Of a stretch of DNA of 64,000 bases, positions 52,256-54,934 are shown in pieces (within the stretch, counting starts at the first letter, position 1; each line of letters starts with the position of its first letter). The position numbers and the translations under genes were made by a program. The notes beneath the pieces are model-generated. The model was given only the letters and a program-made list of their open reading frames with translations, did not search any database and was not told the origin of the DNA. Origin of the DNA: Bacillota bacterium (GTDB lineage Bacteria > Bacillota > Dehalobacteriia > UBA4068 > UBA4997); the NCBI GenBank assembly GCA_036677375.1, contig JAVBWO010000012.1, positions 103,995 through 167,994 on the forward strand, written 5' to 3'.

Positions 52256-54934
52256 TCAAGCCTTTTGGATACTTACCGCGCAGGCCTTTAATTCCGGGAT
52301 CTTCGCCTTAGGGTCCATGGCCGAATTGGTCAGGAGATTGGCGTTGCCCTCGCTGTAATGGAAGGGCATGAACACCACATCCTGCCGGATCTTTTCACTG
52401 AGCCTGGCAGTGGTTTTCAACTCGCCGCGGCGCGAACGGACCACAACCGTATCCCCGTTCTGAATGCCTAAAGCCGCGGCAGCGGTGGGATTGATCTCGA
52501 TAAAGGATTGCCCCGCCAGGCGGTTGAGACCTTCCACCTGTCCGGTCATAGTGCGGGTATGGTATTGATAAAGCAGACGGCCGGTAGTCAGGATATAAGG
52601 ATATTCCGGATCGGGCAGCTCGGCGCTGGGCCGGTAATCGGTGGCCGTAAAAAGTCCCTTGCCCCGGGAAAAAGAATCTTTGTGCAGATAAGGGGTGCCG
52701 GGGTGATGCAGGTTGGGACACGGCCATTGCAGGCTGCCCTCTTCCTCCAAACGCCGGTAAGTAATGCCGCCGTAAGACGGCGTTAAAAAAGAAAGCTCAT
52801 CCATGATATCCTCGGGAGAACGGGCGACACTGCAATAGCCTAAACCGTCCATGACCGAAAGCAGGATCTCGGTATCGGCTTTGGCGTTGCCCTTGGGGGG
52901 AATGGCCTTGCGAACCCGCTGCACACGGCGTTCGGTATTGGTGAAGGTGCCGTCCTTTTCCGCAAAAGAAGCGGCAGGCAGTACCACATCCGCCAAAGCG
53001 GCCGTCTCGGTAAGGAAAATATCCTGCACCACCAGGAAGTCAAGACTTGCCAGGGCATGCAACACATGGTTGGTATCCGGCTCGGACAAAGCGGGGTTTT
53101 CTCCCATAATATATAAGAGGGATATCTTACCGGAAACGGCGCCCTCCATAATCTCCATCACCGTCAAGCCGGGGGCTTCCGGCAATTGGGGCACTCCCCA
53201 CCAATGGGCGAATTTCTCCCGGATATTGGGATCACCGACCTTTTGATAGCCAGGCAATACATCCGGCAGACACCCCATATCACAGGCGCCTTGCACGTTA
53301 TTTTGCCCCCGCAAGGGATTGATGCCGCCATATTCATGACCGATATGACCGCATAACAATGCCAGATTGGACAAAGCCATCACCGAGTCGGTGCCGGTGG
53401 TATGTTGGGTAATGCCCATGGCGTAGAAAATACCGGCCCGTTTGGCGCCCGCATAGAGCCGGGCCGCTTTTTTGATATCTTCGGCGGCAACGCCGCAAAT
53501 CTCCGCCGCTTTTTCCGCTGTCCAATTTTGCAATAAAGCAGCTAACGCTGCATAATTTTCCGTCCGCTGGTCAATAAAAGTACCGTTCGTCAGGTTCTCA
53601 TCCAGGATCGTCCGCATCATGCCGTTAATCAAAGCGATATTAGTTCCAGGGCGGATCTGTAAAAAGACTTCCGCATGATTGCACATATCCACATAGCGGG
53701 GCTCCGCCACAATAATTTTTGCACCCTTTTGTTTTGCCTGCTTCATCTGGGCGGCAATCACGGGGTGTGCCTCTGTGGTGTTGGAGCCGATAATAAAGAT
53801 CAGGTCCAATCCTTTGACTTCCCGGATACTGTTGGTCATGGCGCCGCTGCCTAAAGTCGTTGCCAGACCGGCAACGGTGGAAGCGTGTCACAAACGGGCG
53901 CAGTGGTCCACATTGTTGGAACCGATGACGCCGCGGAATAGCTTTTGGAAAAGATAATTCTCTTCATTGGTACAGCGGGCGGAAGAAAGACCTGCTATAG
54001 ATTGCCCACCTTTGGTTTCCTTGGTTTCTTTGATCTTTTTGACCACCAAAGCGACGGCTTCCTCCCAGGAAGCCTCACGGAATTCGCCGTTTTCTTTGAT
54101 CAGGGGTTGGGTCAAACGCCGGGGGCTGTCTATGAAGTTATAACCGAATTTCCCTTTTACACAGAGCAAGCCGTCATTGGCGGGACCGGGCGCCGGCTCC
54201 ACCCCCACGATCTTGCCGCCTGAAGAAATGAGATCCAACTGGCAACCTACGCCGCAATAAGCGCAAACGGTACGGGTGGCCTTGCTTTGCGGAACCTGGT
54301 ATTGATAACCATTTTTAGGGGTTAAGGCCCCCACAGGACAATTGGAAACACAATTGCCGCAGGAAACACAGCGGGATTGATCAAGAGGCAGCAGAAATTC
54401 CGGTGAAATTTGGGTTCTCATGCCTCTGCCCACCGTCTCTATGGCATACATCCCTTGCAGCTGGCTGCATACCCGAACACAGCGGTGGCAAAGGATACAT
54501 TTATTCCGATCCAGATTGAAGAATGGATTGCTCTCATCCACGGGATAGGCCGGCGGCTTGGCGGGAAAGCTGCTTTCCCCCACGCCATACTCCCGGCAGT
54601 ATTCCTGCAGGCGACAGTGACCGGCGGCATTACAGACCAGACATTCCACTTTATGGGTGGAAAGGATCAATTCCAAAATGGTACGCCGAGCCGTCAACAC
54701 ACGCTCCGAACGGGTAAAAATCTCCATGCCGTCCATAATCTCCGTGGCACAGGCTATTTTTAAATTGCGCTGTCCCGTAACTTCTACCACGCACAAACGG
54801 CAGCTGCCATCCGGTGTTAACTTCTCCATATAACACAGGGTAGGGATGTCGATGCCCATGGCCTTGGCGGCATTTAAAATGGTCATGGGCTTTTCTGCGG
54901 TAAATTTACGGTTATCAATGGTAATGGTTATCAT
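52256..54934 (-). CDS. fdhA: selenocysteine-containing formate dehydrogenase alpha subunit (2Fe-2S + 4Fe-4S + Mo-bisPGD domains). Track ORFs 53888..54934 and 52256..53839 are one gene read through an in-frame TGA.
   Basis: The N-terminal ORF ends ...NNVDHCARL at TGA (53888-53890). The next ATG (53839) is exactly 17 codons downstream in the same frame. Read-through gives [24 protein letters not shown], which aligns with the E. coli FdhF Sec140 region (ARV-U-HGPSVAGLHQSVGNGAMSN). A SECIS-like hairpin follows. Confidence 0.85.
53855..53887 (-). promoter_or_regulatory. SECIS-like stem-loop immediately 3' of the UGA (GUUGCC-GGUCU-GGCAAC)
   Basis: mRNA UGA CAC GCU UCC ACC GUUGCCGGUCUGGCAAC. The hairpin starts 15 nt after the UGA and has an apical loop containing GGUC, as in the fdhF SECIS. 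Confidence 0.65.

Follow-up and report, generated by a model that had tools for sequence, protein, structure and literature searches.

The stretch of DNA analysed here (the window) comprises 64,000 nucleotides (nt) of contig JAVBWO010000012.1 (positions 103,995 to 167,994, forward strand) from a Bacillota bacterium (GCA_036677375.1), and carries on its minus strand two neighbouring open reading frames (ORFs) with homology to formate dehydrogenase (FDH). The first ORF (53888-54934, 348 amino acids (aa)) ends in ...NNVDHCARL and is followed by a TGA at 53890-53888. The second (52256-53839, 527 aa) lies in the same frame, and its ATG at 53839 is located 17 codons past the TGA. The translation of 52256-54934 comprised 893 codons, with this TGA as the lone internal stop. 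The positions of the TGA and of the downstream ATG had been given in a first-pass annotation made from the sequence alone, and both were reproduced. We consider 52256-54934 to be a single gene, fdhA, encoding a predicted selenocysteine (Sec) FDH catalytic subunit in which the UGA would be recoded through a downstream selenocysteine insertion sequence (SECIS) hairpin, and we place the probability of this sequence-based reading at roughly 0.9.

The joined translation was compared with the NCBIfam profile TIGR01591 (FDH alpha subunit of the molybdenum/tungsten-bis-pyranopterin guanine dinucleotide (Mo/W-bis-PGD) type), which has a curated cutoff of 666.25 bits. The read-through product scored 848.6 bits and covered profile positions 1-672 as a single stretch. 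Both halves fell under the cutoff when scored alone, with 168.4 bits for the N-terminal ORF (profile 1-128) and 636.6 bits for the C-terminal ORF (profile 146-672). The 17 profile positions absent from both ORFs (129-145) correspond to the UGA and the 16 codons that precede ATG 53839. The earlier proposal of one gene read through the TGA is thus supported by a family profile that only the joined product passes. Pfam analysis of the read-through product identified Fer2_4, NADH-G_4Fe-4S_3, Fer4 (two 4Fe-4S sites), Molybdop_Fe4S4, Molybdopterin and Molydop_binding, giving an architecture of an N-terminal NuoG-like 2Fe-2S/4Fe-4S module followed by a Mo/W-bis-PGD domain.

Comparison with proteins of known structure gave matches to 9wxb_B (E 7.7e-224), 6tg9_A (E 3.5e-219) and 1aa6_A (E 1.2e-169). 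The residue encoded by the UGA aligned with residue 140 of Escherichia coli FdhF (1aa6_A), written X for Sec, in agreement with the first-pass annotation, and a short query placed the UGA residue and the following His on Sec140-His141. The same two residues aligned with Cys386-His387 of Rhodobacter capsulatus FdsA (6tg9_A), while the Arg of the PLRGQNNVQG motif aligned with Arg587 of that protein. The F420-dependent enzyme 9t1s_L contains CARLXH, with X (Sec) at the UGA position. The site therefore falls on the ligand position in both Sec-type and cysteine (Cys)-type alpha subunits. We take the roles of the ligand, the catalytic His and the active-site Arg in 1aa6_A and 6tg9_A to be established for these structures.

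Downstream of the UGA, a hairpin was identified with a perfect 6-bp stem (nt 16-21 paired with nt 27-32, counting the U of the UGA as +1) and the loop G22-G23-U24-C25-U26, in which G23 is position 53868 and U24 position 53867. The hairpin was present in the minimum-free-energy fold of the 59-nt region. Its first base is +16, which is 15 nt past the U and 12 nt past the A of the UGA. The first-pass annotation had described it as starting 15 nt after the UGA, which is correct when counted from the U, but the distance from the end of the codon is 12 nt. The minimal fdhF SECIS of E. coli spans nt 15-31, begins 11 nt from the UGA and includes U17, G23 and U24 (PMC8659212). The window hairpin matches E. 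coli fdhF (PMC8659212) in how far G23 and U24 lie from the UGA, and differs from it in its perfect 6-bp stem, its 5-nt loop and a U17 that is paired instead of bulged.

To compare the gene with its relatives, contigs representing one genome per species and metagenome contigs were scanned at the DNA level, which gave 39 and 56 related loci, respectively, and nine further Cys-type genes were fetched one by one. A protein homologue search had returned full-length Cys-type proteins only among its best 120 matches (Cys in 106 full-length matches by a strict motif, and in six of six inspected NQVD variants); as Sec-type genes are stored split, such a search shows only Cys types, and the DNA-level scans were needed. 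TGA was present at the homologous codon in 24 relatives, and TGC or TGT in all others with an alignable site. TGA is carried by uncultured Gudongella and Fastidiosipila, among others, and by one member of a tandem fdhA pair in Gottschalkia purinilytica. The closest relatives in DNA also carry TGA (L068, 62%; L001, 61%; L041, 60%). Identity to the Sec-type relatives was only 56-62% across the scored loci, a range to which the Sec-type copy of G. purinilytica did not contribute, and no relative above 62% was found in the collections searched (the best match among the GTDB representatives was 61% identical). The Sec-type fdhA genes of G. purinilytica (L101), uncultured Gudongella, Fastidiosipila and other Clostridia (L001-L004, L009, L038, L041, L068) share with the window gene the architecture, the TGA codon and a downstream fdhD, and their hairpin is as in the window save for compensatory variants.

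The hairpin was strongly conserved among the relatives with TGA, all 24 of which have 6/6 stem pairs, and 23 of which have the loop GGUCU. Among 11 Cys-type genes with the peptide V[AST]GL, the full stem was present in two and GGUCU in three, and none had both. The joint occurrence of stem and GGUCU thus differed between 23/24 Sec-type and 0/11 Cys-type genes (Fisher p = 3e-8; 1.6e-4 on distinct haplotypes). In the alignment of 18 distinct TGA-type sequences, all 108 stem cells formed standard pairs, and 17 cells were compensatory. Pair 24-36 was found as UA, AU, CG or GC, and pair 27-33 as CG, AU or GC, with the both-sided changes at synonymous third codon positions. None of 500 shuffles reached the observed pairing or covariation score, sliding the partner by 1-3 columns reduced the pairing to 18-63%, and RNAalifold predicted the same stem from the relatives. 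It is this covariation among orthologues that argues for a real hairpin; the fold energy alone gives no support.

Several observations weigh against a recoded UGA. Folding of the 59-nt region gave an ordinary energy (-19.2 kcal/mol, z = -1.05 relative to shuffles). U17 pairs with A31, so that the bulge of the E. coli fdhF SECIS is missing; the same base is paired in every Sec-type relative of the clade, and the bulged U17 therefore looks specific to E. coli rather than defining. The peptide V-A-G-L-A-T (GUN GCN GGN CUN GCN ACN) by itself determines four stem pairs out of six, and leaves only the other two pairs and the third loop base unconstrained. Cys-type relatives with the V[AST]GL peptide keep 4-6 of the 6 pairs as 'fossil' hairpins (the stem is complete, 6/6, in L097 and L105, whose loops are GGUUU and GGAUU, whereas L098 and L100 combine GGUCU with a 5/6 stem). 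A hairpin in a single sequence is, for these two reasons, weaker evidence than it appears. NCBIfam and Pfam scans of window ORFs identified no selA, selB or selD, and the 64-kb window contains no tRNA and hence no tRNA-Sec. In a neighbour-joining tree calculated without support values, the window protein forms a long branch of its own adjacent to Cys-type groups, and the Sec and Cys forms are interleaved.

The Rfam model SECIS_3 (RF01989) also fell short. A search of 181 nt gave a match of 36.7 bits (E 3.5e-7), whereas the gathering score is 63. Sec-type relatives, at 39.9-46.3 bits, failed to reach it as well, and the Cys-type genes L097 and L100 reached 37.2 and 34.8 bits. The model is therefore uninformative for this clade and does not serve as a membership test. 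A search with a SECIS model had been suggested in the first-pass annotation; as Sec and Cys genes score alike, the match was dropped as support.

The only serious rival is that the gene is a pseudogene or is decaying. Here, a Cys codon (TGC or TGT) would have mutated to TGA over a fossil hairpin, or selA/selB would have been lost with just the selD-dependent cofactor trait retained, and translation would end at codon 349. A single base change suffices to turn TGY into TGA, most or all stem pairs persist in Cys-type relatives that share the peptide, the nearest neighbours in the tree are Cys-type, the window is devoid of Sec machinery, and genomes with selD and yqeB that lack Sec decoding exist (PMC2276186). 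The sole lesion in 893 codons nevertheless coincides with the codon for the Sec/Cys ligand, and the two halves are free of other damage and score like functional homologues. The fdhD gene directly downstream is also intact. The window also has all three features that the peptide leaves free, a combination found in 23 of the 24 Sec-type and none of the 11 Cys-type genes. The first-pass annotation had reasoned that close relatives with TGC or TGT in the same surrounding sequence would imply a recent nonsense mutation. At approximately 60% identity, Cys types do share the surrounding peptide and have partial hairpins, but none has the full stem together with GGUCU. We regard decay as unlikely.

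Two of the related loci carry a Cys-type fdhA with a partial hairpin. In L101 (G. purinilytica, LGSS01000019.1), the tandem fdhA paralogues are a Sec-type gene (TGA at 731) and a Cys-type gene (TGT at 4045), the latter with a 5/6-pair hairpin and the loop GGACU. Each paralogue is followed by a rubrerythrin gene, and molybdenum cofactor (Moco) genes and fdhD come thereafter. In L100 (Deltaproteobacteria metagenome-assembled genome, SBEG01000008.1, 301-1683), a Cys-type fdhA whose hairpin is nearly intact (GGUCU and a 5/6 stem) adjoins selA, a pattern compatible with recent replacement of Sec by Cys in an organism that decodes Sec.

A genuine split would yield an Fe-S protein of 348 aa and, from ATG 53839, a molybdopterin protein of 527 aa. 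Gene callers report these two products, P0001 and P0002, both in the public protein collection, where they are unnamed, and on a Logan contig. The break would fall inside the Pfam Molybdopterin domain, which runs unbroken across the UGA (residues 273-692), and neither product passes TIGR01591. Conserved residues at profile 129-145 would be lost, namely the metal ligand, the catalytic His and 15 others. ATG 53839 encodes the internal Met of a GSGAMTN motif that is conserved throughout the homologues, and no clear ribosome-binding site precedes it (GGCAGCGGCGCCATG). A split gene is thus exceedingly improbable.

A similarly negligible likelihood attaches to a selenium-free reading of the UGA as an ordinary amino acid, through a reassigned code (Trp or Gly) or near-cognate suppression (Cys or Trp). 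In other systems, near-cognate Cys- or Trp-tRNA is known to read UGA at Sec sites when selenium is limiting. TGA, however, is the stop codon, located where expected, of 13 of the 50 family-supported genes of the window, fdhA and fdhD among them. This indicates the standard genetic code and excludes a reassigned one, and a covarying hairpin in the SelB-binding register would have no role. An assembly error at the TGA is unlikely, as the Logan assembly of run SRR22741940, possibly built from the same reads, is identical to the window over 2260 bp that include the site.

The window also contains a cluster for the maturation of selenium-dependent molybdenum hydroxylases, in which yqeB and yqeC lie 15.5-17.8 kb from the fdhA TGA. 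YqeB (TIGR03309, 360.2 bits, cutoff 220) and YqeC (TIGR03172, 186 bits, cutoff 73) passed their cutoffs, MocA was slightly below its own (TIGR03310, 179.6 bits, cutoff 186.45), and the XdhC-related gene (282 bits) was under its equivalog cutoff. The YqeB family is restricted to selD-positive genomes and predicts selD, not selA, selB or tRNA-Sec (PMC2276186). The cluster therefore supports selenium use and not the recoding of UGA itself. The link drawn in the first-pass annotation between the FDH and yqeB/yqeC accordingly stands as far as the genes are present and selD is implied, and does not extend to decoding by selA, selB and tRNA-Sec. The cluster extends more widely over 33953-38747 on the minus strand (moeA-like, xdhC-like, yqeB, mocA, yqeC and a ModE-like regulator). 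No molybdenum hydroxylase structural gene was found beside it among the window ORFs scanned, and the client enzyme may be encoded elsewhere.

If the UGA is recoded, the process would be as follows. The UGA would not be taken as a stop during translation; the hairpin 12 nt downstream would bind the elongation factor SelB with Sec-tRNA(Sec), and SelB would bring Sec to the ribosomal A site. We infer that selA, selB, selC and selD are present in the genome. In the folded enzyme, Sec would be the protein ligand of a bis-pyranopterin cofactor containing molybdenum or tungsten, beside the catalytic His and with the Arg of PLRGQNNVQG. Electrons would exit by way of the [4Fe-4S] cluster in the Mo domain and of the N-terminal NuoG-like 2Fe-2S/4Fe-4S module, and FdhD, the product of the next gene, would sulfurate the cofactor. 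Our guess for the electron acceptor is ferredoxin. It is also conceivable, if highly unlikely, that the UGA acts as a selenium-dependent switch, with the full 98-kDa enzyme made when selenium is present and a 348-residue NuoG-like Fe-S module with a role of its own made when it is absent; relatedly, the stand-alone Sec-FdhA, which in contrast to most relatives lacks nuoE/F-like partners in its vicinity, may feed a different acceptor.

Judged from the sequence, the mechanism appears to be that of the E. coli fdhF paradigm. By its architecture, the protein is of the FdsA/FdhA type with a NuoG-like N-terminus and a predicted Sec replacing Cys. The Mo-bis-PGD domain aligns with E. coli FdhF (PDB 1AA6/1FDO) over window residues 219-890, with the UGA on the Sec codon. 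The window protein differs in its extra N-terminal module of approximately 215 residues, and the gene lies outside a hyc/formate-hydrogenlyase context. With the alpha subunits of NAD-dependent, FdsA-type enzymes (6TG9/6TGA, 9WXB), the similarity extends over the full-length architecture (residues 2-889), with the ligand position, His and Arg conserved. The R. capsulatus enzyme has Cys386 where the window gene would have Sec, and NuoE/NuoF-like partners are encoded with the FdsA type. No nuoE- or nuoF-like genes were found in the 64-kb window (tblastn with NuoE/NuoF-like queries from L097, E 1e-8), although such partners may be encoded elsewhere in the genome. By the same search, such genes lie directly upstream of fdhA in approximately 50 related loci, and a stand-alone fdhA, as in the window, was found in G. 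purinilytica and two Cys-type loci.

The practical value of these results lies in the correct annotation of fdhA. The two neighbouring ORFs are an ordinary FDH gene, and this is an annotation correction rather than a new kind of biology. As neither stored half passes the TIGR01591 cutoff, automated pipelines would miss the FDH or call a pseudogene. The results also indicate that an otherwise unrepresented lineage of spore-forming Bacillota probably uses selenium in two ways, through Sec decoding and through the cofactor system of YqeB/YqeC. Within this FDH clade, Sec and Cys genes are told apart by the GGUCU loop combined with the two stem pairs at synonymous sites, and hairpin and Rfam evidence need to be calibrated against Cys-type paralogues.

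The coordinates of fdhA, its associated elements and other features of the window are listed in Table 1.

Table 1. Features of the window, with positions numbered from its first nucleotide.
Feature	Position	Strand	Remarks
fdhA	52256..54934	-	892-residue FDH catalytic subunit (predicted); Sec at residue 349; own stop also TGA (52258-52256)
In-frame UGA, predicted to be read as Sec (Mo/W ligand)	53888..53890	-	Catalytic His next; alignment to 1aa6_A, 9t1s_L and 6tg9_A; TGA in 24 relatives
Putative SECIS apical hairpin	53859..53875	-	5' arm GUUGCC 53875-53870; loop GGUCU 53869-53865; 3' arm GGCAAC 53864-53859
Extended match to Rfam SECIS_3 (RF01989)	53835..53893	-	Model positions 1-59 of 59, hairpin in register; below threshold
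fdhD, FDH cofactor sulfurtransferase	51559..52242	-	Starts 13 nt past the fdhA stop; PF02634 1e-46; TIGR00129 133.9 bits, cutoff 140.9 (just missed)
Promoter-like site, TTGACT-17-TATGAT	55003..55031	-	~70 nt upstream of the fdhA ATG; top consensus match in 51300-55600 (10/12); consensus match only
Se-dependent molybdenum hydroxylase maturation cluster	34976..38394	-	xdhC-like 34976-36025; yqeB 36043-36831; mocA/ygfJ 37004-37630; yqeC 37627-38394
Pilin-like genes	55490-56005, 56042-56533		Pilus cluster
pilT	57273-58373		Pilus cluster
pilB/gspE	58462-60189		Pilus cluster
Prepilin peptidase	60196-61041	+	Pilus cluster
pilM-like	62557-63516	-	Pilus cluster
pilC end	63526-63990	-	Pilus cluster

The fdhD gene is probably co-transcribed with fdhA, and 15 related loci likewise have an fdhD homologue downstream of fdhA. 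In four of the related loci, a Moco riboswitch (RF01055, 47-84 bits) was identified just past fdhD (L001, 5907-6025; L002, 11991-12105; L006, 10269-10386; L101, 8048-8165). The window differs from its Sec-type relatives in this respect, as it has no such riboswitch, and no Rfam family was detected at gathering thresholds in the whole window.

Between the pilin gene and fdhA, the plus strand at 55172-55387 contains many short repeats, with 5.5 copies of TGTGGC at 55180-55212 and 2.5 copies of a 12-mer at 55312-55341. A 61-aa ORF at 55177-55362 begins with an ATG after GGAGG and encodes 23 cysteines (MCGCGCGCGCGCFFPW...CCCKCCCKCCPPPPVG). It is overlapped by a 68-aa Ala/Val-rich ORF from the GTG at 55181, which is the frame called on the Logan contig. 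These ORFs had no Pfam or NCBIfam match, and the exact sequence was absent from the protein collection. A hairpin with a T-run at approximately 55392-55418 could be the terminator of an ORF in this region, if either frame is real.

Immediately upstream of fdhA, a type IV pilus cluster occupies 55490-64000, mostly on the minus strand. The window scan for long ORF pairs joined by TGA returned one other candidate, 62557-63999 on the minus strand; this was rejected, as it corresponds to the end of pilC and pilM, two genes in the same frame.

Elsewhere in the window, 40405-41292 on the plus strand encodes a protein of the 2-phosphosulfolactate phosphatase (ComB) family. It overlaps an ORF at 40209-40730 on the minus strand, which had no family match and is probably spurious. 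All six window proteins that were looked up were singleton clusters at 90% identity. Traits of spore-forming Bacillota in the window include spoVAC/AD/AE, ytvI and a PASTA kinase, and traits of an anaerobe include indolepyruvate ferredoxin oxidoreductase and a rubrerythrin-like protein. The alpha and beta subunits of the former are encoded with a phenylacetate-CoA ligase-like gene at 41516-45260 on the minus strand, next to a sodium/solute symporter, and constitute an aromatic amino-acid fermentation module.

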